Below, one piece after another: positions 22,952 through 39,251 of a stretch of 39,251 bases of DNA. The stretch is taken from assembly GCA_963663405.2 (NCBI GenBank), contig CAXXSM010000086.1, positions 1 to 39,251 on the forward strand. Reading direction: 5' to 3'. Source of the stretch: a bacterium (GTDB lineage Bacteria > Hinthialibacterota > Hinthialibacteria > Hinthialibacterales > Hinthialibacteraceae). Every line of letters begins with the position of its first letter. Positions within the stretch are counted from its first letter, which is position 1. Made by a program: the position numbers and the translations under genes. The notes below the pieces were generated by a model that was not told the DNA's origin, ran no database searches, and saw nothing but the letters and a program-made list of their open reading frames with translations.

Positions 22952-22957
22952 AAAAAA

Positions 22958-24391: not shown

Positions 24392-24429
24392 TCGGATTCA
24401 ATATCGAATTCAAAATTGTTTTCTTTAGT

Positions 24430-24458: not shown

Positions 24459-24739
24459 TCAAAATTTTCAATTATCAACCAGAAAAAGAAGGATTGAAGA
24501 AACGCCTTCATTCTCCATTTAACGTTTCGTAACACTTTACTAATGATATGAAAAAAGTCTATAGTTTTTTACATTTGGCTGGTTTATCTCAAAAATGTGC
24601 GGATTCGTAGTATCGATATCCTGGAATTTATTATTGGATTGAATAGGTGAAAGAGCGATTATTGAATTTTCTCGGCAAATGTTCCTTTCATCATGAATTT
24701 AATAGAATAATTCATCATATTGAAAAATTGGAATGTTAA

Positions 24740-26299
24740 ATGAACTCACTAAATCGATTGACTTGTCTTCTGTTCTTGTTTCTATTCGTCACAATCTCTT
24801 ACTCATACACCGCTAACCACTGGCTCACACAATGGGGAAATCCCCAAAGGACTCGGTATTTTTCATCAGATTATATTCCTTCTCAAAAAGCCACCCGATT
24901 GACAAAAAGAACAATTCAATTGCCATTCCCAATTGAAGAATTATTCTATACGGCGGACGTTACTGGAGATGGAAAAGCCGAGTTCGTCTCGTTGATTCAA
25001 GATCCACCTTCGATCTTGATCGTGGATCTTACGAATGAATCATACGAACAGATTCCATTAGAAAAAAGTCCTCATCTGACGGAAGAGGATACTGAAATCC
25101 AATATGAGATTATTCAACTAGTGGACTATGATGGTGAACCAGGATTGGAGGTTTTTTGCGAAGTCCTGCCAGTTGTTCCCGGATCGTATTATGATGGCAA
25201 ACCGACATTTTACCAGATTGTTTCTCCCCGGCTCAAAAAAGTCATCCATCGATTTTCTGGTATTACCATTGAAGACCGGAGTGGTGATGGAATGTGGAGT
25301 GGGAGCGAAATCGCTTCCATTTTATTCAAGGATCAAACAGATCAATGGAAAATGGCCGCGTGCATGTCTGCCGGTCACGAGGATTACAAACCAAGGTCGA
25401 TCAATATATACAACATTGAAAACGGTCAGTTGGAGGCACAATTTCATACGGCCACGAGCACACGGAAGATTTCATTGCTGAAAACAGAAAGCGATGAAAT
25501 ATTGATCACGCTTTGGTCTCACACTCCTGATAATTGGATACGGATCAATGGAGAGATTCAATACGATGAAGATGGAAATAAAATTAATGTTAGTGAGATT
25601 TTGGATGAAAAGGTAGTAACCGATAAAGAAGGTTATAGTATCTGTTTGAACTATAATGGATCGCTGAACGAAGACGCGCTCCAATTACGCTGGTATTCAA
25701 AAATTGTGGATTACTGTTCCATCAATTCAGCAATTATCCAAGATTCCCTGAACAGAAATCTTGCCGTAGATTTATGGCATATCGTTCGCGCTTGGGATCC
25801 GCTATCCGCTGGAGGAATATGCATTTTTGATTTAGAAACGGGAGAAACAATAAATGAATTTCAAGCCGATGAGGGATTATCGTTTGAGCATATCATCGCT
25901 CCACCCCATAGTGATAGGATTTACACACGAATTTACGAACTTCCCCATTTAGTCCAATACAATATCCAAAATGGTGAAAGTAAAATTGTTGAATTATCCG
26001 ACAATTCCATCGTGCAATTAGAACTGATTGGGGCGGCGGATATGGATGGCGGCGGTGAGTATGATATTGTTGTTATGAGTAATGCCTCGGGTGAATTTGA
26101 ACTAATTGTTCTGGATACAGATCTGAACGAAAAAACCTCCATTCCAATTCCTCCATCCTATAAAACCGCTGTTTTTGGGGACGCGAATCAGGATGGATAT
26201 CCAGAAGTCTATTTGATCGATCAAAATACCAACCAGAGTCTCACCATTATTGAATACGGCAATCCTTCTTCTTTTTTCCCGTTTAACGATTACAAATAA
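24740..26299 (+). CDS. Secreted FG-GAP/VCBS-like beta-propeller protein
   Basis: Signal peptide; DVTGDGKAE, DYDGEPGLE, DMDGGGEYD, DANQDGYPE loops. Confidence 0.8.
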   Translation: MNSLNRLTCLLFLFLFVTISYSYTANHWLTQWGNPQRTRYFSSDYIPSQKATRLTKRTIQLPFPIEELFYTADVTGDGKAEFVSLIQDPPSILIVDLTNESYEQIPLEKSPHLTEEDTEIQYEIIQLVDYDGEPGLEVFCEVLPVVPGSYYDGKPTFYQIVSPRLKKVIHRFSGITIEDRSGDGMWSGSEIASILFKDQTDQWKMAACMSAGHEDYKPRSINIYNIENGQLEAQFHTATSTRKISLLKTESDEILITLWSHTPDNWIRINGEIQYDEDGNKINVSEILDEKVVTDKEGYSICLNYNGSLNEDALQLRWYSKIVDYCSINSAIIQDSLNRNLAVDLWHIVRAWDPLSAGGICIFDLETGETINEFQADEGLSFEHIIAPPHSDRIYTRIYELPHLVQYNIQNGESKIVELSDNSIVQLELIGAADMDGGGEYDIVVMSNASGEFELIVLDTDLNEKTSIPIPPSYKTAVFGDANQDGYPEVYLIDQNTNQSLTIIEYGNPSSFFPFNDYK

Positions 26300-26365
26300 G
26301 GGCTTATGGATTTCAGTCTTTCATGCGGGATAGTATGCTTGAGTCTTCCAATGTGAACTGGCGGC

Positions 26366-26722
26366 CTAGGGCCGACACTCGATTGGCAAGGGAACCATCA
26401 TCCTGGCCCCAGATAGATGCGCTAAACCCTGGTTGAGAATCCGTTTATCATACGTATGTTCTTCTTCCAACGCGCCTTTTTCATGCAGGCATTGAACGCC
26501 TTTCTGAGAGAGTGAATAAATGAATTCCGGCCGCCCTGGCTGCCCGCGTACAACTCGCTTTCTTTCGATCACGTAATCCAAGCAAAACAGTTTCGACATC
26601 CGCCTGCGGATGGTCCGAACATGGGCGCCTTCCAGGACGGCGATTTGCTTGACAGTCAAAAGCCGGTATTCCGCAATCAAGTACGCCAATTTCAGGTCTT
26701 TCGAATCGATTTTTTGATTCAT
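26366..26722 (-). pseudogene. Replic_Relax (replication-relaxation)-like protein, N-terminal wHTH only, probably truncated
   Basis: YRLLTVKQIA...RRRMSKL...GRPEFIYSLSQKG pattern; GGAGG RBS; no nuclease domain follows. Confidence 0.6.
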
Positions 26723-26890
26723 GATGTTTCCTCCATCTTTTTTATAAAAATAAGCGGGAAGAAATGACCAGAAATTTCAATTGAGCAAATCCACACGAAG
26801 GAATCCTCTATTGCTGAGGGTTGCATTGGAAATCTATGATAAGCGAGATAAGCAAAACCTGTTTGTAGCAAATTTGATTCATTTAAAAAA

Positions 26891-26906
26891 CCGAAACATT
26901 TAAATA
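26891..26906 (+). promoter_or_regulatory. Archaeal-type BRE-TATA motif
   Basis: CCGAAACA-TTTAAATA, upstream of GGTGA RBS (26942) and the 26943/26952 ORF. Confidence 0.65.
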
Positions 26907-26942
26907 CAGGTTCATCACCACTTTATAGAAACAACATCAGCG

Positions 26943-27536
26943 GTGATTGCATTGAATTTCGGACAATCAAACTACAATCAACATACGCCCTATATGGGCT
27001 TGGAATCGAGAACGGATTATTTGAATTCTTCTTCATCGGTTTATTCCCAATCTAAATCCTTGTCCCTGAAACAACCGGACACTTATTCTGGAGAGATTGA
27101 CTCGGCCACGGTTTCCTCCCCTACTCACTTGGATGCGCTGACTGATGGAATCCAATCCGAAAAATCGAGGGATCCGATCCATCGTTTTCTGGCGGATAAA
27201 AAAGCGTTTTTATCAAATAGCGTGGAAGATATTTTGGGGATGATTTATGAACGGGAATATTTACGGGATACGAATTGTTACCGGATCGATCGCGATTCCT
27301 GTTACATCTCACAGAAACTGTATGAAATCTATTACATTCCCCTTGGGCTGAATCCCAACATCGATAAACTGCGCTCCAATCTCGAACGGGAGATGATTGC
27401 GTTTGAACGGGAGAAGCGGATGGAATCGGTAGCGTGCTGGCGGGATATCACTCGCTTAAAAGGCGACCTGCGGGAAGTCATGCGGGAATTTTCCCAAGAG
27501 AATCGTAAAGGTTATCTGCTGTCAGGTGATCGATAA
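26943..27536 (+). CDS. Hypothetical helical protein, upstream partner of ATPase
   Basis: Long ORF ending 2 nt before ATPase start; real start may be TTG 26952 after GGTGA. Confidence 0.7.
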   Translation: MIALNFGQSNYNQHTPYMGLESRTDYLNSSSSVYSQSKSLSLKQPDTYSGEIDSATVSSPTHLDALTDGIQSEKSRDPIHRFLADKKAFLSNSVEDILGMIYEREYLRDTNCYRIDRDSCYISQKLYEIYYIPLGLNPNIDKLRSNLEREMIAFEREKRMESVACWRDITRLKGDLREVMREFSQENRKGYLLSGDR

Positions 27537-27538
27537 AA

Positions 27539-29521
27539 ATGGAGGTCTATGAATTATGCCGGAAGCTGAAACCGGTGTTAGGCGGCCGGGCGGATCGATT
27601 GTGGTTGGCCTATCTGGCCGAGGACAATCGCGGGAAACAGGAATTGGAGATCGCATTGCAGTTGTTAGCCGCTCAACATCTGGGCGTAAACGTTCAGGTC
27701 CCTGATGTTCATTTATCCGCTCCGCCACAGGATAAAGCTGATGGAACGTATAACCTTGGTTCGGTGGTCTATTGCGATCGGCCGCTTCACGCATTTGGGC
27801 TCCGAGAAGATGAACTGATCCAGCATACAGCGATCTTTGGCCGGTCGGGAGCGGGGAAAACCAATACGGTGTTTGTCCTTCTGGAGAGTTTTCTTAATCA
27901 AAAAAAGCCGTTCCTTTTGTTCGACTGGAAGCGGAATTATCGGGATCTTTTATCTGTGCGGGAGGATGAAATTTTAGTTTATACAGTGGGAGGGCAGACC
28001 GTTCCCTTCGCATTCAATCCATTGATACCTCCGGAAGGAACCAGCGCGGCGGTTTGGCTCAAAAAAATGATCGAGATCATCGCTCACTCCTATTACTTGG
28101 GAGAGGGCGTCATGTATCTTCTCCAGGAAGCGATCGATGCGGTGTATCACTCGTTCGGTGTGTACAAAGGAAATCCCCCCAAATACCCCACCTTTCAAGA
28201 TGTTCTGGAATGGCTGGAAAAACACCCAGTGAAAGGACGAAAAGCGCAATGGATGGATTCCGCTTTGCGGGGCGTTCGATCGATCTGTTTTGGGCATATG
28301 GGGAACGTGATGAACACCAGCGTGCAATCGAATGTGGCCAATCTCTTGGGCAAGAATGTGATCCTGGAGTTGGATAACCTGACCAACGCGGATAAAACAT
28401 TCACGATCGAGTCGCTCCTGCTGTGGATTCATCATTACCGATTGACGCAGCCGGACCGGGAGACCTTCAAACACGCCATGATCATCGAGGAAGCGCATCA
28501 CATTTTACTGAAACGTTCCGGCGCCGGGAGCGGCGGGGAAGCGATTACCGACACCATTCTCCGGGAAATCCGGGAATTGGGGGAAGGGATTGTGTTGGTA
28601 GATCAGCATCCGAGTTTGATCTCGATTCCCGCGATGGGCAACACCTACGCCACGATCTGCATGAATCTGAAACACCGGTCCGATGTCAACGCGGCGGGTG
28701 GGGCGATGCTGATTGACAATGAAGAGCGGGAATTATTGGGCCGGCTGCCAATCGGTCGGGCGGTCGTCAAACTCCAGGGCCGTTGGCTGCAACCGTTTGA
28801 GATCTCGATTCCTCACCGCAAAATCCCCAAAGGTTCAGTGAACGATACCGCTTTGGCGCAACACATGGTGGAATGGAATATCCTTAATCCCTATGCGGAT
28901 TATGAGGAAATCGTAAATGGTGATGAGGATGCTATCACTATCCAATTGAATGAGAAAGAAAAAACCTTTTTGATCGATGTGTTTCAGAATCCACTGTATG
29001 GCGCGGTGGAGCGGTACCGGCATCTTCATCTTAGCCGCAGGAAAGGAAACGCGATTCGGGAAGCGTGTATCGAAAAAGGATTGATTGAACCGGAGGAGAT
29101 TCGGACATACAGCGGAAAAACAGTTCTGCTGGGATTAACGCCAAATGGAAAAACAATCTTGCGTAATTTGGGATATGACGTTCCGGATAAATCCCGTTGG
29201 GGCAGTTTGGAACATGAGTTCTGGAAAGAAAAAGCCGCCCAACAATTCGTTCATTTGGATTGGACCGTAACGAAAGAAGAATCCGGCCATGGATATACCG
29301 ATCTTGTGGCGGAAAAGAACGGCCAAAAAATTGCGGTGGAGATTGAAACGGGAAAATCAAATTGGAGGGAAAATATCCGGAAGAATCTAGCGGGAGATTA
29401 TCGAGGGATTTTCATCCTAACTACCAAACCAGAAACGCAGAATCAGATTCTAAAAGTGATCGATGAAATGGAAACCAAGATCCCCATCAAAGTGAAACAA
29501 GTCCAAGATTTCGTGAAATAA
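27539..29521 (+). CDS. HerA/VirB4/FtsK-like ATPase (DUF87) with C-terminal wHTH and PD-(D/E)xK-like domain
   Basis: Walker A GRSGAGKT, Walker B IIEEAH, REIRELGEG..LVDQHPS; C-terminal EHEFW...TDLVAEK...IAVEIETG. Confidence 0.85.
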   Translation: MEVYELCRKLKPVLGGRADRLWLAYLAEDNRGKQELEIALQLLAAQHLGVNVQVPDVHLSAPPQDKADGTYNLGSVVYCDRPLHAFGLREDELIQHTAIFGRSGAGKTNTVFVLLESFLNQKKPFLLFDWKRNYRDLLSVREDEILVYTVGGQTVPFAFNPLIPPEGTSAAVWLKKMIEIIAHSYYLGEGVMYLLQEAIDAVYHSFGVYKGNPPKYPTFQDVLEWLEKHPVKGRKAQWMDSALRGVRSICFGHMGNVMNTSVQSNVANLLGKNVILELDNLTNADKTFTIESLLLWIHHYRLTQPDRETFKHAMIIEEAHHILLKRSGAGSGGEAITDTILREIRELGEGIVLVDQHPSLISIPAMGNTYATICMNLKHRSDVNAAGGAMLIDNEERELLGRLPIGRAVVKLQGRWLQPFEISIPHRKIPKGSVNDTALAQHMVEWNILNPYADYEEIVNGDEDAITIQLNEKEKTFLIDVFQNPLYGAVERYRHLHLSRRKGNAIREACIEKGLIEPEEIRTYSGKTVLLGLTPNGKTILRNLGYDVPDKSRWGSLEHEFWKEKAAQQFVHLDWTVTKEESGHGYTDLVAEKNGQKIAVEIETGKSNWRENIRKNLAGDYRGIFILTTKPETQNQILKVIDEMETKIPIKVKQVQDFVK

Positions 29522-29729
29522 GGAAAAATAAAATCTCTGGAGTGAAACACCGTGTCAAAGGAATCCGATTTCAGTGATTCCAGGAGTATTTACCTTTCAT
29601 ATTTCAATTGACCCTCTATAGAGCCTATTTCATTCCAGGATAAATAGAATCTTGGAATATCTTCATTCGGAAGAATCCGTTGGATAATTCCAAGATTCAT
29701 AATCATGCAATGCATGGGATAATTGATCT

Positions 29730-30614
29730 TCAATCAACAACCATGGGCTGTGATTTCTTCCCCTCTTTTGTGAGAGATTCAATCTGAGTAATGATGGTGG
29801 ATGCGCATCGGCGGATCTTCTCCAGACGATTGAGCAGTTTGTTTTTATCGCCTTCCCACAGGCGGATGTAATCGGACGACGCTTGGATAGCCTGTACGCT
29901 GAACCGTTCACAGACGACACAAGCGACGGCTTCGGCCTCCAATTCACGCAGTGGACGGGAATCGTTGGTTGTTTGTCTTTGATGAAGCAATTCATGGGCG
30001 AATTCATGCGCAAGCACAGCGAAGGTTTCCGCGGAATCCATTCCCTTTTTGATCGTGATGGATCCTTTTTTGGAATAGCCGTATGCCCGGCCTGCGTACC
30101 CATAATCGAGCTGGATTCCATTGTTACGAACAGCTTGCTCCAGCATGGAAAGACGTTGTCTCGCTTCACCTTGTGCTCGAAACGGTTCGGGTAACTTTGA
30201 GCCGTGTGTCTGCGCTAGATCGAAAACACAGACCACACGAAACGAATGTATTGTGTCTTCCTCAAATGGTACTTTCGAGTCTTCTTGCTTTGTTTCTTTT
30301 GACTGTATTGAAACTGTTTTCTTTTTGGTGCAAACCGGAGCGAGGACACGGACGGCTTTCTCGCCACGTTTAATAGATCGATGAAGGCGTTTCCAGGTTT
30401 GGAATCCGGCGACTTGCGTGGCTTCAGGGCGTTGGGCCAAAATGAGAAATTGATTGGAGGTGGAGTAGGTATGGAAAAGCGCCATGGTTTTCAGGTATCG
30501 AGTCATCTCGGTGGAGTATCCTTGTTCCAGATGTTCTCCCAATTTGGCGATGGTCTCCTGGATGATTTTCCGGCTTTGTTTAATTCGATCTTTGGTAGTT
30601 TGGTTTGGTTTCAT
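29730..30614 (-). CDS. ArdC-like ssDNA-binding/antirestriction protein with zincin motif
   Basis: FHTYSTSNQFLI..QRPEATQVAGFQTW....RSIKRGEKA, VFDLAQT, HEFAH, ELEAEAVA; GGAGG RBS before ATG 30614. Confidence 0.85.
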   Translation of the reverse strand: MKPNQTTKDRIKQSRKIIQETIAKLGEHLEQGYSTEMTRYLKTMALFHTYSTSNQFLILAQRPEATQVAGFQTWKRLHRSIKRGEKAVRVLAPVCTKKKTVSIQSKETKQEDSKVPFEEDTIHSFRVVCVFDLAQTHGSKLPEPFRAQGEARQRLSMLEQAVRNNGIQLDYGYAGRAYGYSKKGSITIKKGMDSAETFAVLAHEFAHELLHQRQTTNDSRPLRELEAEAVACVVCERFSVQAIQASSDYIRLWEGDKNKLLNRLEKIRRCASTIITQIESLTKEGKKSQPMVVD

Positions 30615-30792
30615 TTGTATCCTCCGGCCAACTGGCCACTCTTGGACCAGTTGGCTGGAGGATCTCATCGAGTGAATTTTTCAAGATCCAATTGTGAGAA
30701 GTGAGTACCAGGTTAACGAAAGGTCAATCAAGGAAAAACAGCTGGATTATGTCCACTAATAATTTTCAATATGGAAGATAATTCCTCAAAAA

Positions 30793-30810
30793 AAGGGGAT
30801 TTCTCCCCTT
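30793..30810 (-). terminator. Probable intrinsic terminator
   Basis: Minus strand AAGGGGA-GAAA-TCCCCTT followed by a T run, just after the 30830 stop. Confidence 0.6.
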
Positions 30811-30829
30811 CAGTTCATCACAATCAATC

Positions 30830-31180
30830 CTAACGCAAGAACAGATAATACCATCGCCGTTTTGGCTTCTGGCTTTCCGTTTCACGATGAATCCGTTGAC
30901 GTTCCAGTTCAGAAAGTTTCCGGCCGATCTCTTCGGTGGTTTCTTCCTGAGCTACAGCCCGATAGGCTGTTACGCTTTTGAAGATCACGGATTGATACTT
31001 TGCTTCGACGATATCGATCAGTTCGAGGATCGCTGCGCCAATTCGAGCGGCTTTGACATGCTCTTGGAGATCGTTGAAGTGACTATCGAAAATCGATTGT
31101 TCGGTCAGGATATCTCGCAGTCCTCGGCCTACATTTCGATTCGATTTTGCGTTAGCTGTTTTACTACCGTTATTATTCAT
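30830..31180 (-). CDS. Hypothetical coiled-coil protein
   Basis: AAAGGA RBS before MNNNGSK at 31180; basic/aromatic C-terminus KRRWYYLFLR. Confidence 0.65.
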   Translation of the reverse strand: MNNNGSKTANAKSNRNVGRGLRDILTEQSIFDSHFNDLQEHVKAARIGAAILELIDIVEAKYQSVIFKSVTAYRAVAQEETTEEIGRKLSELERQRIHRETESQKPKRRWYYLFLR

Positions 31181-31202
31181 GATTTTGTTCCTTTCTAGTT
31201 TT

Positions 31203-31673
31203 TTAGATTTCTTGCCAGACCGATCCGGAATTGATGCCGGGGGCAATGGCGTGCGCGGCGGCTGTCAGCGTTCGATAGACTGTCCCATTGAACAGGATGG
31301 ATCGACCATCGGAGCGTTTGTTGGATGGATCGTCCACGATGACGGCTTCGTAGGTTTGGCCCCGGTAGATGGTTTGAATCGTGGAACCAACCGGTGGGAT
31401 TTCCAATGGTTTGCGGGTGTGTTCGGGGATGTATTGCTCATCGCCGGTTTGGTTTGGAATCTTGGTTTGGATTTTCTCCTTTCTTTTTGGCTTTGAACTT
31501 TGATTCAGTGTTGGCGGTGATTTGACACTTGGTTGTGATTTGTTCGAATCACAATCGATGAGACGTCTTTCTTGTTCACGTATGCAATCGGTTTGGATGC
31601 CACAGCTCGCGCATTCCGGAGCGATGGGATCAAACAGGGCGAAACAGGATGGATTTTGGACACAGGTATCCAT
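31203..31673 (-). CDS. Cys-cluster plus DUF2924/RAMA-like DNA-binding protein
   Basis: AGGAG RBS; C-x9-C-x2-C-x5-C; PPVGSTI...YRGQTY...FNGTVYRTLTAAAHAI. Confidence 0.65.
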   Translation of the reverse strand: MDTCVQNPSCFALFDPIAPECASCGIQTDCIREQERRLIDCDSNKSQPSVKSPPTLNQSSKPKRKEKIQTKIPNQTGDEQYIPEHTRKPLEIPPVGSTIQTIYRGQTYEAVIVDDPSNKRSDGRSILFNGTVYRTLTAAAHAIAPGINSGSVWQEI

Positions 31674-31722
31674 TGATAAATCTCCTTTCGATATTGGTTA
31701 AATTTTTAAGAAGAATTGGTTA

Positions 31723-33147
31723 CTACCGGTTTTTGCGGAGTAGTTCTGAAAACTTTGTGTAGAACGCTTTGGGGAGTTTGGGCAGGTTTTGAACGACTAC
31801 GTTCTCTTTGAAAAAGTTTTTCACGTAGTCCGTTTGGATACCAACAGCCACACACTCGATTCCTGCCTGTTCACACTTACGCAGATTCTCTTCGAGGTGT
31901 TTGATGACGGTCAGCTGCATCGTTGGATTCCCACTGTATGGTTCCCCATCGGTAAGGATAAGGATGATCTTCCGAGTCTCCTTTCGAACGACGATCCGTT
32001 TCGCAGTGAAAATAATGGCGTCATCGATGGGCGTGTATTCCAGGGCGTTCATAGCAGGAACGCGAGGCTTCAGCGACCGGAATGGTTCGTCGAACGCCTT
32101 AAAGATGGAATAGACGCAGGGAAAGAAGCGGGTGTAGAGTGTGGAGAGTTGCTGCAAATCCATCCCCGTTTCTCGTGTCAATCTCGCGAAGGCCCGTTTA
32201 GAAGGTTCGGTGGTATAACCGATCACTTCCGAGGGGATACGCAGTTGGTTGAGCGTATCAGCGAACAGAATGACGACCTGACGGGCGCATTTCACCAAAC
32301 GTTTGATCTCAGTTTTTTTAAGGTTGGAGACTTTTTGAGACAGAATTTCCGTTTCGGTCTTCTCATCTGGGTAGTCCAGATAGATGACTGTGTCGAACCG
32401 GTCTTTGAAGGCTTTGTTCAAAATCTGGGTACCGGCATACAATCCGGATTCATCGCCATTGCCGATCGTATTGGCAGTGGCGATGATCCGAAAATCGGGC
32501 TGGGAAGCGATACTCTCACCGTCTTTTTCGAGAAGAGTGAGTTTACCGCATTCTTCGAGCACGCTTTGGAGCACGAATAGGATATTCGGTAGAGCCGCGT
32601 CGATCTCATCGAGCAGTAGCCAGTCACCGTTTTTCATCGCGGTGGGCAGGATGCCTTCACTGTAAACCATCTCTTTCCCACGAACAGTCCAGCGGCCTAA
32701 GAAATCAGAGACCGTAGTCTCGCCATTCAGGTTGCAGCGCCGCAAAGGAGTATTGGTCTGGGCGGCGAGCTGCATAACCAGCGAACTTTTTCCTGTGCCG
32801 GTAGGGCCGACGATCATGACGTTCTCCTGGTGGTTAATGGCGTGGATCAGGTAGGCGGCCTCGGGCGGGAATTGATAATGCGGATCAAGGTTAGGCGCTA
32901 GTGGACTGGTTCCATTTCTCTTTTTGAGCGCCGCGTCATGAATCCGGAACTCTGCTGTGGCTTGTATCGGTGTTCGTTTGACGGTTTTGCCGGATTGGAT
33001 CTGATTGAGCAATGCCGGAGCCACCAAAGGCGCGCCAGGGTATTGCTTCAGGTACTCTTGGGCTGTTGTGCGGTGGCATTCACCCAAGTGACCATACAAA
33101 GCGCCATGGATTGACTCTCCACAAAGTTGACAGGTGATAGTGTTCAT
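31723..33147 (-). CDS. MoxR/CobS-like AAA+ ATPase fused in frame to partial CobT-like VWA domain
   Basis: N-terminal C2H2-like finger, GPTGTGKS, LLLDEID, FRIIATAN, DRF; then EVIGYTT...ILTDGEP...VAVGI; ATG 33147 with AAGGA RBS. Confidence 0.8.
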   Translation of the reverse strand: MNTITCQLCGESIHGALYGHLGECHRTTAQEYLKQYPGAPLVAPALLNQIQSGKTVKRTPIQATAEFRIHDAALKKRNGTSPLAPNLDPHYQFPPEAAYLIHAINHQENVMIVGPTGTGKSSLVMQLAAQTNTPLRRCNLNGETTVSDFLGRWTVRGKEMVYSEGILPTAMKNGDWLLLDEIDAALPNILFVLQSVLEECGKLTLLEKDGESIASQPDFRIIATANTIGNGDESGLYAGTQILNKAFKDRFDTVIYLDYPDEKTETEILSQKVSNLKKTEIKRLVKCARQVVILFADTLNQLRIPSEVIGYTTEPSKRAFARLTRETGMDLQQLSTLYTRFFPCVYSIFKAFDEPFRSLKPRVPAMNALEYTPIDDAIIFTAKRIVVRKETRKIILILTDGEPYSGNPTMQLTVIKHLEENLRKCEQAGIECVAVGIQTDYVKNFFKENVVVQNLPKLPKAFYTKFSELLRKNR

Positions 33148-33253
33148 CTCTTTTTCCTTTCTCGTAATAAATAAAAAAACCCCGGCGGATACCGGGGCTG
33201 TTTCGTTTGTGGGCTCTATGCCCTTTTTCATTTGTTTGAACTGTGGAATCGGA

Positions 33254-33490
33254 TCATTGGATCTTGATTCCAGGATCGGTGAAATTTTTTTCACAGTTTT
33301 GGCAGTAGAGATATTCCATTACCGGATTGATTCCATCCTCGACAGACTCGATTTCCTCTTCCGCCCAAATCAAACCGCAATCATCCTGGTAGAGATTGCG
33401 ATAGATACTGGATGGAAGCACGACACAGAGCTGGATGCGTTTCACATCTTCATTTCCACAATGCGGGCATTGGATTTCTTTGATACACAT
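33254..33490 (-). CDS. Small Zn-ribbon protein
   Basis: CPHC...CQNC, AAGGA RBS. Confidence 0.65.
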   Translation of the reverse strand: MCIKEIQCPHCGNEDVKRIQLCVVLPSSIYRNLYQDDCGLIWAEEEIESVEDGINPVMEYLYCQNCEKNFTDPGIKIQ

Positions 33491-33698
33491 TTCATTTTTC
33501 CTTTCCTTGATTGGTGTGGTTTTCGGTGAAATTGAAAAAGACCGGATAGAACCTTTGTTCCATCCGGCCTTTTGCCTATGAATTGATTCAAATAGAACTA
33601 CTCAACATCGAAGTCATTGATGTTGAGTTAGCGCATCATCTTTGCGGGGGAAGGATAACTTGTAGGATGATTCCAGGAGTGAGAAAAAGGAAAATGGA

Positions 33699-34136
33699 TT
33701 ACTCACTTCCCCAAGTGTAGACCATACATGGATCACCTTCTTCATCCGGTTCCGTTTTCTCGCGTAGCTCTTGTGCGGTGAGACTGTCCACATCGTAATC
33801 CTGGACGCGGATTCTTACGCCAGAAGGGATGTTTTGGATATCCTGGATGACGCCGCCGCGCACAAAGACGGTCACTTCATCCAAATCCATGACTGTAACA
33901 TCCTTGATGGCCCGGCAACCGATCATCGCCATTCCATCGGTTTTTAGGTTGGTCATGATTTCACGCTCTTCCTCCGCATCATACGCGTACATCGCAGCGA
34001 GTTCCTTGTAAGCTTGGCTTTCCTCATTACTACCATCGGATCTCATAAAGAACGAGTTTGCATATTCGTGTTCTCCATCCACGATAGTGTAATGGACCTT
34101 CATCGTTTGATTTCCTTTCCTTTTGGTGTTTTTCAT
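33699..34136 (-). CDS. Hypothetical acidic protein of mobile elements
   Basis: GGAGG RBS; VFVRGGVIQDI...VQDYD segment. Confidence 0.65.
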   Translation of the reverse strand: MKNTKRKGNQTMKVHYTIVDGEHEYANSFFMRSDGSNEESQAYKELAAMYAYDAEEEREIMTNLKTDGMAMIGCRAIKDVTVMDLDEVTVFVRGGVIQDIQNIPSGVRIRVQDYDVDSLTAQELREKTEPDEEGDPCMVYTWGSE

Positions 34137-34170
34137 TGTTTGGATACCTCCTTCATTTTTTTTAATTGAA

Positions 34171-34434
34171 CTAGTAATCCTCTGGATAAATCAACGACAC
34201 CAGATTTTGTCCATCGGTTCCAGCTCCTTCATCCAGGATGCCCCACAACCGGCGCCCGTTGATCTGGACGGTCCACAGGTTGGGATTGGCTGGATCGGGA
34301 ACTTTCATCTTCTCAAAGAGAATCGTGAACGCGTGATGGATTTCTTCCGGCGTCAATGTTTCGTATACGGTCCGTGACACAACGGTTTGGGGTGGGACTT
34401 CTACGGTATTGCTTGTTCGATTAGTTTCTTTCAT
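34171..34434 (-). CDS. Small plasmid/phage-type hypothetical protein ending LIYPEDY
   Basis: GGAGG RBS; terminal LxxPEDY motif. Confidence 0.65.
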   Translation of the reverse strand: MKETNRTSNTVEVPPQTVVSRTVYETLTPEEIHHAFTILFEKMKVPDPANPNLWTVQINGRRLWGILDEGAGTDGQNLVSLIYPEDY

Positions 34435-34906
34435 TTTGGAACCTCCATTGTTATGGTTGAGGCAAAACGGCCTGGCAGGCCAGTATCTGTCCTGCCAGGT
34501 TGTTTTGCACTTTGGATTTGGACTTGGATAGAAAATGTGATCGGATTAATCGAGAAAAAAGATAGAAAGTGTTCACTAGGTGAATCTCGCCACTTTACGT
34601 TTTTAGACGGGAATATCCCGTATAGTTTTTATATCTTGACCACAGACCGTTCGTTCGCTGTTCAACGGATTGTTGGGACAAACCGGATACAAACAAAGGT
34701 TTCATGTGGCCGATGTTGGTCTTCCAACCTGAAAGTCATCTCATTTTCCTGGCGGAAAAGATTCTACTTTCGGATGGTGTTTTGTTGTTCTTGGGCAGAA
34801 GTGAATTCCCTCCAGTTAATAAATCTTCCGGTTTTGAGCGTTTGGACAACTCAGTTTGGACAACTCAATTTTGAGAGGATTGTTGTATCTCTTGAGTGAT
34901 TGCAAA

Positions 34907-34922
34907 CCGTAACCTTTAAATA
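34907..34922 (+). promoter_or_regulatory. Archaeal-type BRE-TATA motif
   Basis: CCGTAACC-TTTAAATA, ATG 24 nt downstream at 34946. Confidence 0.6.
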
Positions 34923-34945
34923 GTAGTGACAATTCTCCTTGCCTC

Positions 34946-35119
34946 ATGAAACGAATCACACCCCACACACCCGAGAATGAAATTGCTGATTGGATTGAAG
35001 AACAACTCAAAGAAGTCAACCTAAAAGTCGAACACATTATTTACCGGCTGCGGTATGAAGATCCACGCATTTGGTTGGCTGAGAACGAGCGGAAAGATAA
35101 GAACCTAAAGAAATATTAA
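34946..35119 (+). CDS. Small hypothetical protein (57 aa), not in ORF track
   Basis: MKRITPHTPENEIADWIEEQLKEVNLKVEHIIYRLRYEDPRIWLAENERKDKNLKKY; start at leaderless distance from a TATA motif. Confidence 0.5.
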   Translation: MKRITPHTPENEIADWIEEQLKEVNLKVEHIIYRLRYEDPRIWLAENERKDKNLKKY

Positions 35120-35488
35120 TCTCTGGATGGGATTGTTTTTTCACCCCTGCCTTTTCGATCAAAATAGACGGTTTCTGAACGAATTCATTTTTTCTTCCTT
35201 GTTAAAATTTCGTGACTCAACTTTTGAGGATTCTCCAAAAATGACCTCTTACCGAAAACCGTGCGAAAGCGTATGATTCGAGCTCAATGGGGTGGGGGGA
35301 CAAGCGAACTCAAACTAAAAGATGGAAAAATAGGCGATTTTCTTGGGGAATAGGATGAAATTTTAGGAGGGTATTTACCTTTCCAATTTAGGATGCTCAC
35401 CGTTGAACTAATGCCTATCGTTTTATTGACGAGAAACGTGAATGGAACTCATTTTTTGAGCGTTTTTGCATTGATAGAAAGAGAATTC

Positions 35489-35902
35489 TCAAAGGTAAAA
35501 TATCAGGTCCCGTTCTTTCTGTTCCTGGATGGAATCCTTCTTCTGTCGGAAATTTAGAACTTGATTGGCCACTTTCACTAGGGCCCGGGGAAACTTGTTG
35601 GAAAACACCCAGCCTTCCCGATAGCCGTATGTCTTGTTGAACCGGGAAACGTGATCGATCAATCCCATCCGCCGCATTTTGGCGCGAACCGTCTCCAAAC
35701 TTCGGCGGCTTAATCCCAGTTGATCCACGATCGGATCCAGGACCGGCAGGAACTGATCCTTAGCCCATTTCAGTTCCACAAAGATCGACAGAAAAATCTT
35801 TTGATGATTAGAGTTATCCGGAAAGAGAATTCTCGCTAACTCATCCGCGGATTCCAACCGGGATATCGTGTTATGGTTAATCTCGATTTTTGTGGAAGCC
35901 AT
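35489..35902 (-). CDS. Putative winged-helix protein
   Basis: LGLSRRSLETVRAKMRRMGLID HTH-like pattern; 1 nt from upstream stop. Confidence 0.7.
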   Translation of the reverse strand: MASTKIEINHNTISRLESADELARILFPDNSNHQKIFLSIFVELKWAKDQFLPVLDPIVDQLGLSRRSLETVRAKMRRMGLIDHVSRFNKTYGYREGWVFSNKFPRALVKVANQVLNFRQKKDSIQEQKERDLIFYL

Positions 35903-35903
35903 T

Positions 35904-36248
35904 TTATTTAGGGCGGTAGGATCGATTAGCTTGATTGACTCGTTTGCGTAATGTCACTCGTTGCTTCGCAATTTCAAGTGCCTGGGAACGAAGGCTTGGA
36001 CCAAAGGTGGATTCTATCCAATAGATCGTTTCATACGCGCTAACGTAAATATCGTTCAGTAACCGTTGGAACCTCCAGCGGATTCCCTGGCGCGTCATAC
36101 CAAACGCGCGCTCTATTTTCATCCCGTAATTCTTGCGCAGCACTATCGTTTTCGGATCGGTCTGTTTCAGCTCAATGGATAGATCGTTCTCCTGAAATAG
36201 AGCTTTCAACCGTTGAATGAACTCCAAATCCTTTTGTGTTAGTTTCAC
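35904..36248 (-). CDS. Hypothetical HTH-like protein
   Basis: FGMTRQGIRWRF; start uncertain (GTG 36248 favoured by TATA spacing; ATG 36296 or 36359 possible). Confidence 0.65.
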   Translation of the reverse strand: MKLTQKDLEFIQRLKALFQENDLSIELKQTDPKTIVLRKNYGMKIERAFGMTRQGIRWRFQRLLNDIYVSAYETIYWIESTFGPSLRSQALEIAKQRVTLRKRVNQANRSYRPK

Positions 36249-36270
36249 ATTCCATTTCAAGATAGATGTT

Positions 36271-37044
36271 CTATTTAAGGTTTTCGATCTCCTCATCACA
36301 ATCCCGTTTGAACACCCAGATATCATTCCCCTCTTGCCGCAAATGGACTTCCCGGTCATGTTCCATGAAAATCAAGGTGATAAACCGCCAGATTCGATCT
36401 TTTGGTTTGGATGGATGCAATACTGGGATCTCTGAAAACAGCACACCACGCTGGTTAATAAGAGCGGAGATGGCGCGTCGGTAATCGGTCATGCAGAACG
36501 TTTCCGAACGATCATACGCAAACTCATCATTTCCCGTTTCGGCGCCGATCAACCGGTCCAAATCTTGTTCCAATCCTGGGATGGTGTCCAATTGGGGATA
36601 GTCCTCCAACTCCAGTTCTTTCGAGCGGGAATCAGCAAGTTGTTTTCTCATCCTCTCCCGGAGTTGTTGTTTCCGTTCCCGTGATTCTTTCATCCGCTCT
36701 CTAAAATAATCCGCGTCGAACAGCCGTTCATCGAAGAGAAATTTGGACGGAACAGTAGCGCCGCATTGCGCGCAGGCGTAATGATACACTTTCTTCGTTA
36801 ACCTGGCTTTGCAGCAGGGGCTTGCTTGAAATTCAATCGTCGGATCAAGCTGAATACCGCAGGAACATCGCCATGTCGTGGGAGAGAGAACCTCCATCTT
36901 TCGGCCGCAGTGTGGGCACCGGTAGCGCATCCGCAGCACCGCCACGTAAAAATCCCGCGCTATGGATTGGATTGTTGTTACTCGATCGTGAACACGGTCG
37001 ATCGCCGCAATCAGAGGATTTGGATTCCTTCGTGGAATGAGCAT
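36271..37044 (-). CDS. Zn-ribbon protein with ScpA/kleisin-like C-terminal winged helix
   Basis: CPHC, CSC, CC, CAQC; C-terminal FITLIFMEHDREVHLRQEGNDIWV resembles the ScpA F.ALL.L...G.V.L.Q...DI motif. Confidence 0.65.
   Translation of the reverse strand: MLIPRRNPNPLIAAIDRVHDRVTTIQSIARDFYVAVLRMRYRCPHCGRKMEVLSPTTWRCSCGIQLDPTIEFQASPCCKARLTKKVYHYACAQCGATVPSKFLFDERLFDADYFRERMKESRERKQQLRERMRKQLADSRSKELELEDYPQLDTIPGLEQDLDRLIGAETGNDEFAYDRSETFCMTDYRRAISALINQRGVLFSEIPVLHPSKPKDRIWRFITLIFMEHDREVHLRQEGNDIWVFKRDCDEEIENLK
36272..36287 (-). promoter_or_regulatory. Archaeal-type BRE-TATA motif
   Basis: TCGAAAAC-CTTAAATA, in-frame GTG (MKLTQKD) 24 nt downstream. Confidence 0.5.
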
Positions 37045-37066
37045 GCCATTGGGGATATGCGCAAAG

Positions 37067-37106
37067 CATATAGATGTTTCGGTTCGAAAAACGAAAGGTT
37101 TATATA
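37067..37106. promoter_or_regulatory. Divergent pair of archaeal-type BRE-TATA motifs
   Basis: Minus CCGAAACA-TCTATATG (37082-37067; ATG 23 nt downstream) and plus ACGAAAGG-TTTATATA (37091-37106). Confidence 0.65.
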
Positions 37107-37141
37107 GATGTCGAGACTTACTGATTTACAGGTGATCAAGA

Positions 37142-37300
37142 ATGGAAGAACTGTATGAATGTCCTTATTGTTCATCGTCAAACACAATTTGGCGGGGCTA
37201 TCGCAAATTGAAAGAAGGGCGCGTTCGAATTCGCCAATGCAAATCCTGCAAACGGCGATTCACGCCCAAAAAACAACCGGAATACGGTGATGAACCATGA
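37142..37300 (+). CDS. Small Zn-ribbon protein (52 aa), not in ORF track
   Basis: MEELYECPYCSSSNTIWRGYRKLKEGRVRIRQCKSCKRRFTPKKQPEYGDEP; AGGTGAT RBS; ATGA overlap with next gene. Confidence 0.75.
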   Translation: MEELYECPYCSSSNTIWRGYRKLKEGRVRIRQCKSCKRRFTPKKQPEYGDEP

Positions 37301-37596
37301 ATGGAATAGCCGCAAAACCGGAGATGGAATTCAAAGCCGGGGCGGTTCGCGCCGCTATCTGGATGAATCCACATCAATCCGCCGATGGTAAATCGTTTAC
37401 CAGCGCGAAAGTCGTCGTGGAACGGATTTACAAGGATGAAAGCGGTCATTTTAAAAGCACACACCGGCTCGATACCAATGATATCCCCAAGGCGATCCTG
37501 CTTCTTAAAAAGGCGTTCGAATGGATGCTTATACTCAAGAAACCGGAGCCTGACCATCCGACGATCCAGTCCCATTTCAAACCGGCGATCCCCTAA
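37297..37596 (+). CDS. Small beta-rich protein, possibly PC4-like ssDNA-binding
   Basis: FKAGAVRAAIW.N...ERIYKD..G.FKST..L..NDIPK pattern; GGTGA RBS. Confidence 0.7.
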   Translation: MNGIAAKPEMEFKAGAVRAAIWMNPHQSADGKSFTSAKVVVERIYKDESGHFKSTHRLDTNDIPKAILLLKKAFEWMLILKKPEPDHPTIQSHFKPAIP

Positions 37597-37605
37597 CCGT
37601 CTACC

Positions 37606-37845
37606 ATGAATCCCTGCTTTGAAGAGCGGACTTTTTTGGCGAATGAGTCACCAATTTGGATTACGATTCAAAGAATCCGAGATCTGCGAAATATGGCTGA
37701 TGCCTGCCGTCATCGTATGCAAGAATTAAGCCGAGAGCCCCACAAGAATTCTTCGGAGATCCGGTTTGAAGAAACCGTTCTTCATTCGACCTTACGAACC
37801 ATTGAGAAAATGGAACATTCATTGTTTCTGGAAAGGAATGACTAA
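37606..37845 (+). CDS. Small hypothetical helical protein
   Basis: 79 aa, follows previous gene by 9 nt, converges on cdc6. Confidence 0.5.
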   Translation: MNPCFEERTFLANESPIWITIQRIRDLRNMADACRHRMQELSREPHKNSSEIRFEETVLHSTLRTIEKMEHSLFLERND

Positions 37846-39113
37846 AGATTTTGCCCACAGGTCTTGAAGACTTTTTGGACGACTTTTTCTGGAAGAGAGG
37901 AAGACAGCTCCCGGGTTTTTCCATACCGCCCCTTTGAGATCACCCGGGCGTTGATTAATCCATAAATATCCAAAAAACTGACGATATCAGAGAATCGCCG
38001 CTGCGTGAGTGTCCGCACGCCCCGTTGCTCACAAATCGATCGATAAATATCATAGGCGGGCCCGGTCCAGAGTTTTTCACGCGAGTTTTGCAACCCTGTA
38101 TAGCAGGCTAAGAGAGCGCATTTCTGTTGAGGCGCGAGAGCGTGGATTAACTGCTCGGTCTTGTCGATCTCCAACAAGGAATCCGCCTCATCCACTTCAC
38201 GCACACCCAGATAACCGCTCGAATCTTCAGCGATTTTGACTCCTTTGACCAGCAACTCGATGGCTTTGCGCGCGTCACCATTCTCCCGTGACGCGTACGC
38301 GGCGATTTTGCGAATCGCTGCGGGATCGACTTTTCGGGTATCGAGGGCTTTTTCCACCCGGAGATTCAAGATTTCGATTAGATCCATGGCGTCGTAGGGC
38401 TCAAAAATGATATCCGTTTTTTTGAGCACGGAGAGAATTCGAGGATCCAGGGTTTTATCCCATTCGATTCGATTGGTCAGCAAAAGGTAGAACAGTCGGA
38501 CGGGAATCCGTTTGGGCAAGGTCTTGGCTAAAAACGTGTAAAAGAGATCGCTGTTGGAGGTGACATTGTCGACCTCGTCCACCACAATGCATACCAAGTC
38601 ATTTCGAGTTGTCAGCGCCTGGATTACGGTTTCCTGCATCTGATCCAACGCAATGCCCTTGCGGTACCGTTTGGTTGTTCCATCCAAGGATAAGGCCAGC
38701 TCGTTCAACGCGCCGAAACAAGTTTTCGGAGTAGTGAGATCGACGTAATAATACTGAAACTGGATCTGTTTGACGCCGCACATGGACGCCAAAGCGTTGA
38801 GAAAATGCAGGCAGGTGACCGATTTCCCTGCGCCGGAAGGACCGTAGATCAGGAGATTGGCCGGCGAATCACCGGCGAGCACCGGTGACAAGTATTTGGC
38901 CAATCGATGTAGTTGTTGTTGGCGGATATTGCGTTGAAAGATCTCCTTCAATACCGCTACCCGTTCGGATTCCGTCAGTTTTTCGTCATCGAGATAGGAG
39001 GGATTCAGCGTGATTTTCTTGTCTTCGATATGGAGAAACGCTTCTTGAATCAAGGATTCTGTGCTCGTTGTCGAGGTGGATCGGCTGGTTCCACAGGAAA
39101 TCTTCTGACTCAT
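37842..39113 (-). CDS. cdc6: Orc1/Cdc6-family AAA+ replication initiator
   Basis: LIYGPSGAGKS, VVDEVD, FEPYDAMDLIEILNLR, GDARKAIELL sensor II, C-terminal wHTH LTQRRFSDIVSFLDIYGLINARVISKGRYGKTR. Confidence 0.9.
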   Translation of the reverse strand: MSQKISCGTSRSTSTTSTESLIQEAFLHIEDKKITLNPSYLDDEKLTESERVAVLKEIFQRNIRQQQLHRLAKYLSPVLAGDSPANLLIYGPSGAGKSVTCLHFLNALASMCGVKQIQFQYYYVDLTTPKTCFGALNELALSLDGTTKRYRKGIALDQMQETVIQALTTRNDLVCIVVDEVDNVTSNSDLFYTFLAKTLPKRIPVRLFYLLLTNRIEWDKTLDPRILSVLKKTDIIFEPYDAMDLIEILNLRVEKALDTRKVDPAAIRKIAAYASRENGDARKAIELLVKGVKIAEDSSGYLGVREVDEADSLLEIDKTEQLIHALAPQQKCALLACYTGLQNSREKLWTGPAYDIYRSICEQRGVRTLTQRRFSDIVSFLDIYGLINARVISKGRYGKTRELSSSLPEKVVQKVFKTCGQNL

Positions 39114-39205
39114 GCCGCATAGGAAGGAGCCTTTTACTATTTAAATCTTCTTTTGTCCTGAAGGAGTGATAACAGATAACCGTAAGGGAAGATTTCCTGT
39201 GGAAC
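39088..39205. repeat. Perfect 18-bp inverted repeat, ORB-like
   Basis: GTTCCACAGGAAATCTTC (39088-39105) and its reverse complement (39188-39205). Confidence 0.85.
39138..39153 (-). promoter_or_regulatory. Archaeal-type BRE-TATA motif of cdc6
   Basis: AAAGAAGA-TTTAAATA, ATG 25 nt downstream, no Shine-Dalgarno. Confidence 0.6.
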
Positions 39206-39251
39206 GTAATAATAAATTATATGTTATTTACTTCTTTTATTACTTACAATA

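Follow-up and report, generated by a model that had tools for sequence, protein, structure and literature searches.

The window considered here, the whole stretch of DNA that was analysed, is contig CAXXSM010000086.1 of assembly GCA_963663405.2 (39,251 bp; C86 below), an entire contig of a metagenome bin of 8.44 Mb in 170 contigs (82% complete, 2.4% contamination) that belongs to the bacterial phylum Hinthialibacterota. Close to its right-hand end, on the minus strand, lies a full-length orc1/cdc6 gene of 423 amino acids (37842..39113), whose start is overlapped and preceded by boxes resembling the origin recognition boxes (ORBs) of archaea and by the beginning of an AT-rich spacer. Gene and boxes are part of a multi-copy element that fills the right-hand half of the window. 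Replication initiation is, in textbooks, split by domain: bacteria use DnaA or plasmid Rep proteins, and archaea and eukaryotes use Orc1/Cdc6 together with MCM. What is a complete gene of this kind doing in a bacterium? Is it a stray piece of archaeal DNA, a regulator, or an initiator at work in a foreign setting?

A bacterial lineage of Orc1/Cdc6

Judged by profiles, solved structures and family alignments, the open reading frame (ORF) at 37842-39113 encodes a genuine Orc1/Cdc6. The NCBIfam profile TIGR02928 ('orc1/cdc6 family replication initiation protein') matches it with 248.2 bits against a cut-off of 181.3, and among the control genomes this profile scores above its cut-off in three archaeal and in zero bacterial ones. 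The narrower equivalog NF001625 (ORC1-type DNA replication protein, cellular archaeal) gives 240.5 bits and leaves its cut-off of 501 unreached, so the window protein is by these models a member of the family without orthology to the cellular archaeal protein. The domains follow in the expected order (their nucleotide coordinates, all on the minus strand, are derived from residue numbers). The AAA+ ATPase module spans residues ~64-240 (38394..38924) and is delimited by Pfam AAA_16/AAA_22, which cover residues 64-205, by the alignment to archaeal Orc1-1 and ORC1 and by invariant columns. It is followed by the Cdc6 lid domain (38220..38375; Pfam Cdc6_lid, residues 247-298, E 2.8e-11, 43.6 bits against a cut-off of 27), which holds sensor 2, and by a predicted C-terminal winged-helix DNA-binding domain (37872..38150; Pfam Cdc6_C, residues 322-414, E 1.4e-21, 76.7 bits against 25.1) that is also recovered in the structure alignments. 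The closest solved structure is Orc1-1 of S. solfataricus (2qby_A; E 1.1e-46, 162.7 bits) and the next is ORC1 of A. pernix (2v1u_A; E 9.2e-46, 159.7 bits), both aligned over residues 64-412, with Orc1-3 (92.2 bits) and the Pyrobaculum Cdc6 1fnn (44 bits) far below.

The motifs, which we name from general knowledge of AAA+ and Orc1 proteins, are all invariant or nearly so in a 17-sequence alignment of the family: Walker A GPSGAGKS (residues 91-98), Walker B VVDEVD with D179 and E180, sensor 1 LLLTN with N214, the arginine finger DPR with R225, sensor 2 GDAR (G279, D280, A281 and R282, each invariant; 279-282) and the wing GRYGKT of the winged helix (395-400). The recognition helix TQRRFSD and the wing GRYGKTRE are almost the same as in archaeal Orc1-1 and ORC1. 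The region of the initiator-specific helix (residues ~125-146, placed after PMC3089459), which lies between Walker A and Walker B, aligns ungapped with 2qby_A and 2v1u_A, and a conserved N-terminal segment (residues ~35-63) lies outside the alignment with the solved archaeal proteins. The original prediction, made by a model from the letters alone, had described a full-length Orc1/Cdc6 with intact Walker A/B, sensor II and C-terminal winged helix-turn-helix, and had named clustering with a non-initiator AAA+ family as the result that would overturn it. Its description holds in the structure and family alignments, and the profile search (TIGR02928 above its cut-off, lid and Cdc6_C found), the structure matches and the phylogeny below all place the protein with initiator-type Orc1/Cdc6.

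Might the protein instead be an anti-phage or conflict-system NTPase that merely resembles Orc1/Cdc6? Some weak STAND/NACHT-type Pfam matches, below their cut-offs, and the defence-like cargo near orc1 loci (a CBASS-type cyclase, KAP NTPase, caspase-like proteins, DruA) would fit such a role. However, PADLOC returned for Orc1 only a marginal match to mad8 (E 5.4e-4) over the P-loop, the Orc1 architecture is complete with lid and Cdc6_C, no effector gene is conserved alongside, and the conserved cognate DNA boxes described below are without counterpart in such systems. We regard this reading of the protein as very improbable.

The host is bacterial by its own genes. The window carries an ECF sigma-70 factor (22242-22859) and an N-methyl prepilin (20953-21390), both found with Pfam, and the genome encodes a true DnaA (226.8 bits, contig C16) as well as DnaB (334.5 bits), of which it has two further paralogues. 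Among public DnaA sequences the closest one (62% identity) comes from an Omnitrophota-labelled bin, and the others, at 51% or less, from ordinary bacteria. No real MCM was found in the host genome: the best match to PF00493 has 30.5 bits, and matches to this model are unspecific, since the same search also hits all 14 control genomes, E. coli included. The bacterial context claimed in the original prediction is thereby confirmed, and archaeal cellular DNA, its other way of being wrong, does not agree with a window and genome that carry sigma-70, DnaA and DnaB genes.

How widely is the protein spread? A word-based protein search gave 432 matches at E <=1e-10; among the 120 listed, identity to the query is 55-71% (its own 100% row aside), and a few of these are named as Hydrogenedentes or Thermodesulfobacteriota proteins. 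In an exhaustive search of 50%-identity representatives, the nearest clusters stand at 68, 45, 40 and 38%, followed by full-length Orc1 proteins at ~26-36%. A species-level genome set yielded 197 stretches with relatives, from which 79 loci were kept, 39 bacterial and 40 archaeal by record title. The bacterial loci bear eight phylum labels (Hydrogenedentota, Sumerlaeota, Thermodesulfobacteriota, Spirochaetota, Zixiibacteriota, Bacteroidota, Nitrospirota and Planctomycetota), some of which may be wrong where they sit on short bin contigs. The carriers include complete bacterial chromosomes and the cultured strains Desulfosarcina variabilis Montpellier, Desulfocarbo indianensis SCBM and NaphS2. 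In the host's own phylum the distribution is patchy, with an orc1 match in 8 of 35 genomes, above the cut-off in five. Carriage in several copies recurs elsewhere, with two to five orc1 modules in several other genomes: loci L059 and L060 share one Desulfarculia chromosome, L068 and L070 belong to Desulfocarbo indianensis, and L056, L057, L063, L072 and L081 to one Thermodesulfobacteriota bin.

Within the main bacterial clade identity is 53-68%; the closest archaeal sequences reach 29-32%. A tree of 72 rows, 38 of them unlabelled representatives, was built quickly by maximum likelihood, with support values from the Shimodaira-Hasegawa-like approximate likelihood ratio test (SH-aLRT) only. In this tree a single branch (SH-aLRT 99) parts the 19 of 19 bacterial-labelled rows and the window protein from the 14 of 14 archaeal-labelled rows, so that set against archaeal Orc1/Cdc6 the window protein falls into a separate bacterial group with 99% support; the bacterial phyla are intermixed on their side. 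On these comparisons the bacterial Orc1 is an old, horizontally moving and purely bacterial lineage, neither a recent import nor contamination. Databases already name proteins of the clade 'Cdc6/Cdc18 family protein' or 'cell division control protein 6'.

The genome itself holds four full-length orc1 copies (C86, C141, C4 and C110; 95-97% protein identity), on contigs of 39-189 kb with bacterial genes. Among the three intact paralogous copies, the ratio of nonsynonymous to synonymous substitution rates (dN/dS) is 0.042-0.045 at a dS of 0.29-0.41; the orc1 copies are under strong purifying selection. An inert remnant of archaeal transfer, or archaeal contamination of the bin, would be a natural first thought for a family that is otherwise archaeal and eukaryotic and a source that is a metagenome bin. 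It is already contradicted by the results: by a dN/dS of ~0.04, by four copies amid bacterial genes, by the gap between the 29-32% identity to archaeal sequences and the 53-68% within the clade, and by the presence of the gene in complete bacterial chromosomes and cultured isolates. Of all the explanations weighed here it has the least credit, next to none.

Inverted boxes around an AT-rich spacer

If the protein is an initiator, where would it bind? A very AT-rich stretch in the intergenic DNA of all four copies is flanked by a TTTCCACAGGAAA-like word in inverted orientation. Of the four exact occurrences of the 13-mer genome-wide, three are at orc1 origin sites. Allowing up to two mismatches to its 11-base core, the word was found 15 times upstream of orc1 in six distant loci (regions from -700 to +60), against a background of 0.07-0.48 per 760 bp, and the aligned sites extend to ~24 bp. 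A position weight matrix (PWM) built from 20 sites of seven seed loci was then scanned over 31 bacterial loci. With orc1 on the top strand, it reveals a fixed triad. The two outer boxes are on the bottom strand, A from -200 to -320 and C from -35 to +12, where it spans the orc1 start codon; box B, on the top strand, lies between them at -75 to -113. Each box consists of the core TTCCAnnGGAAAT followed by a pyrimidine-rich tail (ATYTWCTC), and the consensus of 75 sites reads ttTCCAt.GGAaAttT.Ctc.c.c. Boxes A and B are inverted and their cores face one another across the AT-rich spacer. The family's conserved N-terminal peptide K-I-S-x-G is box C read as codons.

In the window, site C (39088..39111, plus strand; PWM 29.9 bits, the 13-mer with one mismatch) lies over orc1 codons 1-9 and ends at the start codon. 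Site B (39182..39205, minus strand; 27.7 bits) is inverted relative to site C, and its core (39193-39205) faces the start of the spacer, a candidate unwinding element of which the window retains 46 bases (39206..39251, ~13% G+C by count) before the contig ends. Site A, located with the same PWM, falls past the window's end and is seen at C47:59199-59222, C141:2229-2252 and C110:45012-45035. Contig C47 ends with sequence that in other copies follows the window's end ~50 bp further on, so C86 and C47 are probably neighbours. Across the 8.44-Mb genome, PWM matches of at least 27 bits occur solely at the orc1 copies on C86, C47, C141, C110 and C4.

The triad was examined in 23 non-seed loci with at least 360 bp upstream, at a threshold of 19 bits. 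Box A is present in 19 of the 23, box B in 18, box C in 14 and the A+B pair in 17, and the region from -350 to +30 holds 51 box matches in 8,763 bp compared with 2 in the remaining 293,520 bp; these counts overstate independence, as all loci are homologous and L060 and L070 are second copies from seed genomes. The spacer between A and B measures 86-200 bp at a G+C of 0.14-0.47, which is below that of the locus in 22 of 22 cases (0.14 against 0.52 in L059, for instance) and can drop to 14-20% where the locus has 52-55% G+C. Boxes B and C are 87-94 bp apart in 12 of 19 loci. Since L056, L074 and L077 have the triad and none of the three frequent neighbour genes, orc1 is the only protein always linked to the boxes.

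One copy hints at the coupling from the other side. The spacer of C110 is interrupted, between boxes B and A, by a repeat of 501 bp, and the orc1 of the same copy is frameshifted at about codon 400, in the wing; this joint decay fits a functional pair, as a single case. The repeat itself (C110:44409-44909, L008:10410-10910) is non-coding, is found 99-100% identical on eight contigs (C103, C148, C151, C153, C23, C36, C7 and C73) and looks like a recently active element of the miniature inverted-repeat transposable element type.

The boxes bring archaeal origins to mind. According to Matsunaga et al. (PMC1904270), the Pyrococcus origin lies beside cdc6/orc1 and contains mini-ORB and ORB repeats, inverted ORBs and AT-rich regions; ORB and mini-ORB share the motifs 'TTCC' and 'GAA' and are bound by Cdc6/Orc1. 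The bacterial PWM, applied upstream of archaeal orc1 genes, finds 29 matches in 28,832 bp against 21 in 362,513 bp, in a set where many loci are close kin. The archaeal boxes found in this way are weaker (12-15 bits) and often form inverted pairs, with TTTCCACTGGAAC-type cores, or, in L114, a TCCACTGGAAAT core followed by a G-string. By this comparison the bacterial boxes share a 13-bp core with archaeal ORBs and differ in their tails, pyrimidine-rich in the former and a G-string in the latter. The near-identity of recognition helix and wing with Orc1-1 and ORC1 fits a conserved box core. With repeated, inverted boxes around an AT-rich region adjoining the initiator gene, the layout beside orc1 is, as read from the sequences, that of an archaeal origin, conserved across bacterial phyla.

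The same boxes invite a different explanation, in which Orc1 is a DNA-binding ATPase that acts as the element's transcription regulator, repressing its own and neighbouring genes through the boxes with no part in replication. Box C sits on the start codon, and box B (70-110 bp upstream) occupies the expected place of a promoter; neither a helicase nor a primase is linked to orc1; and the elements have been seen solely in integrated form. There is also a precedent, as PMC9738581 describes the archaeal paralogue Orc1-2 of Sulfolobus as a non-initiator regulator of damage-response genes that binds promoter motifs. On the other side, the window protein scores far higher with the initiator types (162.7 and 159.7 bits) than with other Orc1 paralogues (92.2 and 44 bits), every ATPase motif, the arginine finger among them, is invariant or nearly so, and inverted boxes around a spacer of 14-47% G+C form the layout of an unwinding element, which is more than a promoter needs. 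A search of the C141 origin region returned zero sigma-70 consensus sites against a mean of 2.2 in shuffles, which is uninformative, as the consensus may not suit the promoter type of this host. Regulation without replication seems unlikely to us, though it is the strongest of the competing explanations.

A candidate replication module on a mobilisable element

The orc1 gene and its boxes are part of a larger repeated unit. Comparison of the window with its own genome (blastn) delimits a multi-copy element at 20798..39251, at least 18 kb long, which is shared with C110:23984-44404, C141:16516-2317 and C4:83531-58875 at ~87-93% nucleotide identity, occurs in four to five copies and runs on in homology beyond the contig end. 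Its mobilisation and accessory module (26366..33294), annotated with Pfam, comprises a truncated Replic_Relax/MOBC relaxase of 118 aa (26366-26722, minus strand), a HerA/TraG-type P-loop ATPase (27539-29521, plus strand), an ArdC-N plus M78 peptidase protein (29730-30668, minus strand) and a CobS/MoxR-CobT fusion that forms one ORF of 523 aa (31723-33294, minus strand) and, by comparison with C110, results from a deletion of ~1.5 kb. The counterparts in C110 are intact: Replic_Relax of 368 aa (72 bits), CobT of 626 aa and a CobS-like protein of 364 aa. The family PF13814 is placed in the MobC relaxase superfamily in PMC5357655 and given a PD-(D/E)XK fold in PMC3424549. Upstream of orc1, C110 continues with a 415-aa membrane/coiled-coil gene, a 216-aa gene and a tyrosine integrase (111.4 bits, ~3 kb from orc1), the integrase sought around the gene, before host-like genes begin. 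Integrase, relaxase and coupling-type ATPase are therefore found in one repeated unit, as in integrative mobilisable elements. As a mark of attachment sites, a direct repeat shared by the DNA that follows the C110 integrase and the remainder of the element was sought without success, and no tRNA gene turned up either in the window or near the C110 copy. The ends of the element were not found; C110 resembles C141 over the stretch C110:10830 to C110:47262.

Could the complex of Orc1 and boxes serve another DNA transaction of this element, such as partition or anchoring in the manner of a centromere, the marking of excision, or an accessory step of conjugative transfer? A relaxase, a coupling-type ATPase and ArdC are encoded in the same element, ParA adjoins orc1 in L069, and a 257-aa neighbour has a weakly ScpA-like winged helix. 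The boxes, however, track orc1 and not the relaxase, ParA or the neighbours, each of which is found in a minority to about half of the loci, and we know of no Orc1/Cdc6 with a role in partition, excision or transfer. A function of this sort appears improbable, more so than regulation.

What the evidence best agrees with is that Orc1 and the adjoining origin constitute the replication module of the element and depend on a helicase of the host, a reading to which we assign a probability of roughly 0.6. In the mechanism that we have in mind, inferred from archaeal Orc1, the winged helix would read the box core and the initiator-specific helix of the AAA+ module the tail. After excision of the element, Orc1 carrying ATP and seated on boxes A and B would distort and open the AT-rich spacer, and box C would let Orc1 repress its own gene, maybe keeping integrated copies silent. 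Because neither element nor host encodes MCM, we speculate that the opened origin is passed to a host helicase, most likely DnaB. A broader claim, that an archaeal-type module of Orc1, ORB code and unwinding spacer has long been active in bacterial integrative elements under at least eight phylum labels and delivers DnaB or another non-MCM host helicase, is more tentative, and we would sooner bet against it than for it. Prediction of a complex between Orc1 (with the family alignment) and the DnaB of the host returned no answer (scores 0.00 and 0.00) and is evidence neither way. As for the role that the original prediction had given the protein, that of replication initiator of this element, the conserved boxes and AT-rich spacer lend it in silico support; the search for a helicase, a primase and an extrachromosomal form came back empty, which leaves replication itself as an inference.

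Several observations weigh against a replication module. The partner of archaeal-type origins, MCM, is missing from the host genome and from all neighbourhoods scanned, and Pfam scans of the window, of the C110 copy and the other paralogous copies and of 13 related loci (five plus eight) detect neither a replicative helicase nor MCM nor a primase; the absence of MCM from the window had already been noted in the original prediction. To our knowledge, no route leads from an Orc1-type initiator to bacterial DnaB. A DnaB paralogue on C47 was considered as a linked helicase and rejected, as it lies 43 kb from the origin end and in a different repeat, shared with C15. Signs of free replicons are likewise wanting: none of 14 whole-contig loci has the terminal overlaps of a circular form, every long-contig occurrence of orc1 is chromosomal, and IMG/VR contains no Orc1 relatives. 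Among the 72,556 plasmids of PLSDB no member of the bacterial clade was found, all 423 matching records staying below 60% identity; the 85 listed (25 best and 60 spread, overlapping) are all archaeal, at 32% identity or less. Furthermore, the A+B pair is missing at 19 bits in 6 of the 23 non-seed loci, some orc1 genes, such as those of L066 and L086, sit among ordinary or insertion sequence (IS) genes without boxes A and B, and the shared ancestry of the loci lessens the force of the box counts. Boxes around promoter and start codon could serve autoregulation only, and four integrated origins in one chromosome would need silencing. Finally, the window's copy of the element is decayed, with its truncated relaxase and CobS-CobT deletion, yet its orc1 is intact, and the gene could therefore have a role other than replicating its own element.

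Could the missing helicase link be supplied by the neighbours of orc1? Their frequencies were obtained with blastp across 37 related loci, many of them short. Between orc1 and the next larger gene lies a 52-aa zinc-ribbon ORF (37142..37300, plus strand; Pfam Zn_ribbon_NrdR, E 3.4e-05), found in the same place in 8 of the 37 loci. It is followed, all on the minus strand, by a protein of 257 aa that has two CxxC zinc ribbons and ends in a winged helix (36271..37044; 13 loci; AlphaFold2 (AF2) pLDDT 75), by a 151-aa ORF as listed (35904..36359; 14 loci; no Pfam or PDB match) and by a 137-aa winged-helix protein (35489..35902; 17 loci; AF2 pLDDT 75). As the 151-aa ORF is conserved from about residue 38 onwards, the true gene is probably shorter. 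The winged helix of the 257-aa protein finds its best fold matches in ScpA/kleisin C-terminal domains bound to SMC heads (E ~0.01, TM ~0.67 on the target), with an Atlas lead to ScpA of 0.77, and from these weak fold matches the protein may be a kleisin-like adaptor. The 137-aa protein matches generic winged-helix regulators only, at E 0.008 or weaker. Neither of the two accounts for helicase supply. PDB profile searches with the neighbour proteins returned nothing below E 0.1, Pfam at E up to 1 only zinc-ribbon noise, PADLOC nothing for the neighbours save a marginal Csa3 match (E 0.0052) for the 137-aa protein, and a phage library nothing useful for Orc1 or its neighbours. A 99-aa ORF (37297-37596) that had been taken as PC4-like was dropped, Pfam giving no support. 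As to whether the neighbourhood is conserved in other bacteria, a check suggested with the original prediction, the answer is divided: the box triad recurs across phyla, and the neighbour genes are limited to 8-17 of 37 loci.

The loci that were scanned differ in their remaining content, with relaxases in L010 and L014, a HerA ATPase and an integrase in L016, ParA beside orc1 in L069 (Desulfosarcina), and IS elements. The CobS/MoxR-like AAA+ and CobT-VWA pair of the element (C110:35390-38361) is common in phages too (PHROG 249, E 9.3e-62). Another shared part of the element (20953-26299), kept in C110 and C4 at 91-93% identity, holds the prepilin-like gene, the ECF sigma factor and two FG-GAP repeat proteins, an unusual cargo for a mobilisable element. 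In C110 (10594-16495; L048) a JAB peptidase, a 149-aa ORF, a ThiF/E1-like protein and a 994-aa DUF87/HerA ATPase stand in a row, near Ser/Thr kinase, PP2C and VWA genes; the row is a ubiquitin-like conjugation cassette that the C110 and C141 copies carry as cargo, possibly for defence. The variable left part of the window has two tyrosine integrases (508-1488 and 1269-2507), resolvase genes (3263-3703 and 19659-20228) and two insertion sequences (7032-9304 and 11333-12942) whose copies on C140 and C18 match them at 99.9% identity, with transposases of the DUF4277 type (7553-9232) and the DDE_5/DDE_Tnp_1 type (11376-12845). A gene for a 1185-aa Laminin_G_3 (concanavalin-like) surface protein (15162-18719) contains a tandem duplication of 695 bp at 94% identity (16216-16910 and 16999-17693).

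Significance and comparison with known systems

What is new here is, on sequence comparison, the triad of 24-bp repeats which lies upstream of orc1 and is conserved from one phylum to another. In the literature searched, no description of a bacterial Orc1/Cdc6 clade or of its boxes was found, the Supplementary Text of PMC12680538 lying outside this coverage; that paper (Nat Ecol Evol 2025) mentions rare archaeal-to-bacterial transfer of genes for the replisome in that Supplementary Text only. A complete Orc1/Cdc6 with origin boxes is conserved, selected and mobile among bacteria without MCM. If these origins fire, they would be a natural system in which to see the minimal duties of an Orc1-type initiator at its origin and how the choice of helicase is rewired. 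If a non-MCM helicase is indeed delivered, the module would be a natural cross-domain hybrid of initiation machineries, and the opening of an origin by Orc1 would be independent of the helicase family loaded. Should the element replicate, it would also offer a new type of replicon, useful for vector building, in phyla that are poorly tractable (Thermodesulfobacteriota, Planctomycetota, Hydrogenedentota). Since cultured carriers exist (the Desulfosarcina variabilis, Desulfocarbo indianensis and NaphS2 strains named above), the helicase question is directly testable. And if Orc1 turns out to be a regulator only, it would still be a bacterial case of Orc1 and its box code reused outside replication.

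Which known systems does the module resemble? The closest are the archaeal origins of Orc1-1/Cdc6-1 with their ORBs (Sulfolobus oriC1 and oriC2, Aeropyrum, Pyrococcus oriC). The order of AAA+ module with initiator-specific helix, lid and winged helix is the same, the gene adjoins its own boxes, the core is TTCCAnnGGAAAT, and inverted boxes surround an AT-rich region. In contrast to these, the module here resides in a bacterial host with DnaA and DnaB and no MCM, and in an integrative mobilisable element rather than at a chromosomal origin; its protein belongs to a separate bacterial clade (99% SH-aLRT) at ~30% identity to archaeal sequences, the box tail is pyrimidine-rich, and a conserved N-terminal segment lies outside the alignment with the solved archaeal proteins. 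Archaeal plasmids and integrated elements (haloarchaeal, Methanosarcina plasmids) likewise use Orc1/Cdc6 as the replication gene of an accessory replicon, but their hosts supply MCM, and identity to their proteins is 21-32%. Orc1-2 of Sulfolobus, the damage-response regulator, has the same architecture and binds promoter motifs, whereas the window protein is far nearer the initiator-type structures and its boxes flank an AT-rich spacer.

On the bacterial side, DnaA and oriC offer an AAA+ initiator of the same clade, boxes with an unwinding element and a gene that is often beside the origin. The DNA-binding domain of DnaA, however, is the helix-turn-helix domain IV, which reads another box, and the host's own dnaA lies elsewhere, on C16. 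Integrative mobilisable elements with MOBC (PF13814) relaxases, and those of the actinomycete integrative and conjugative element (AICE) type, share the combination of integrase, relaxase, coupling or translocase ATPase and replication gene. The known ones use Rep proteins of the rolling-circle or prim-pol type, and we are aware of no report of such an element with Orc1/Cdc6. The initiators of iteron plasmids (RepA, RepE, pi, TrfA) come near in their logic, with a gene that adjoins repeated binding sites and an AT-rich region; they autoregulate through sites at their own gene and use the DnaB of the host, as is proposed for the module here. A kinship of the WH1 domain of iteron Rep proteins with the winged helix of Orc1/Cdc6 is proposed in a preprint (bioRxiv 10.1101/2024.09.03.610885). 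Unlike the iteron initiators, which are without an AAA+ ATPase, the protein of the window has kept ATPase, lid and winged helix together.

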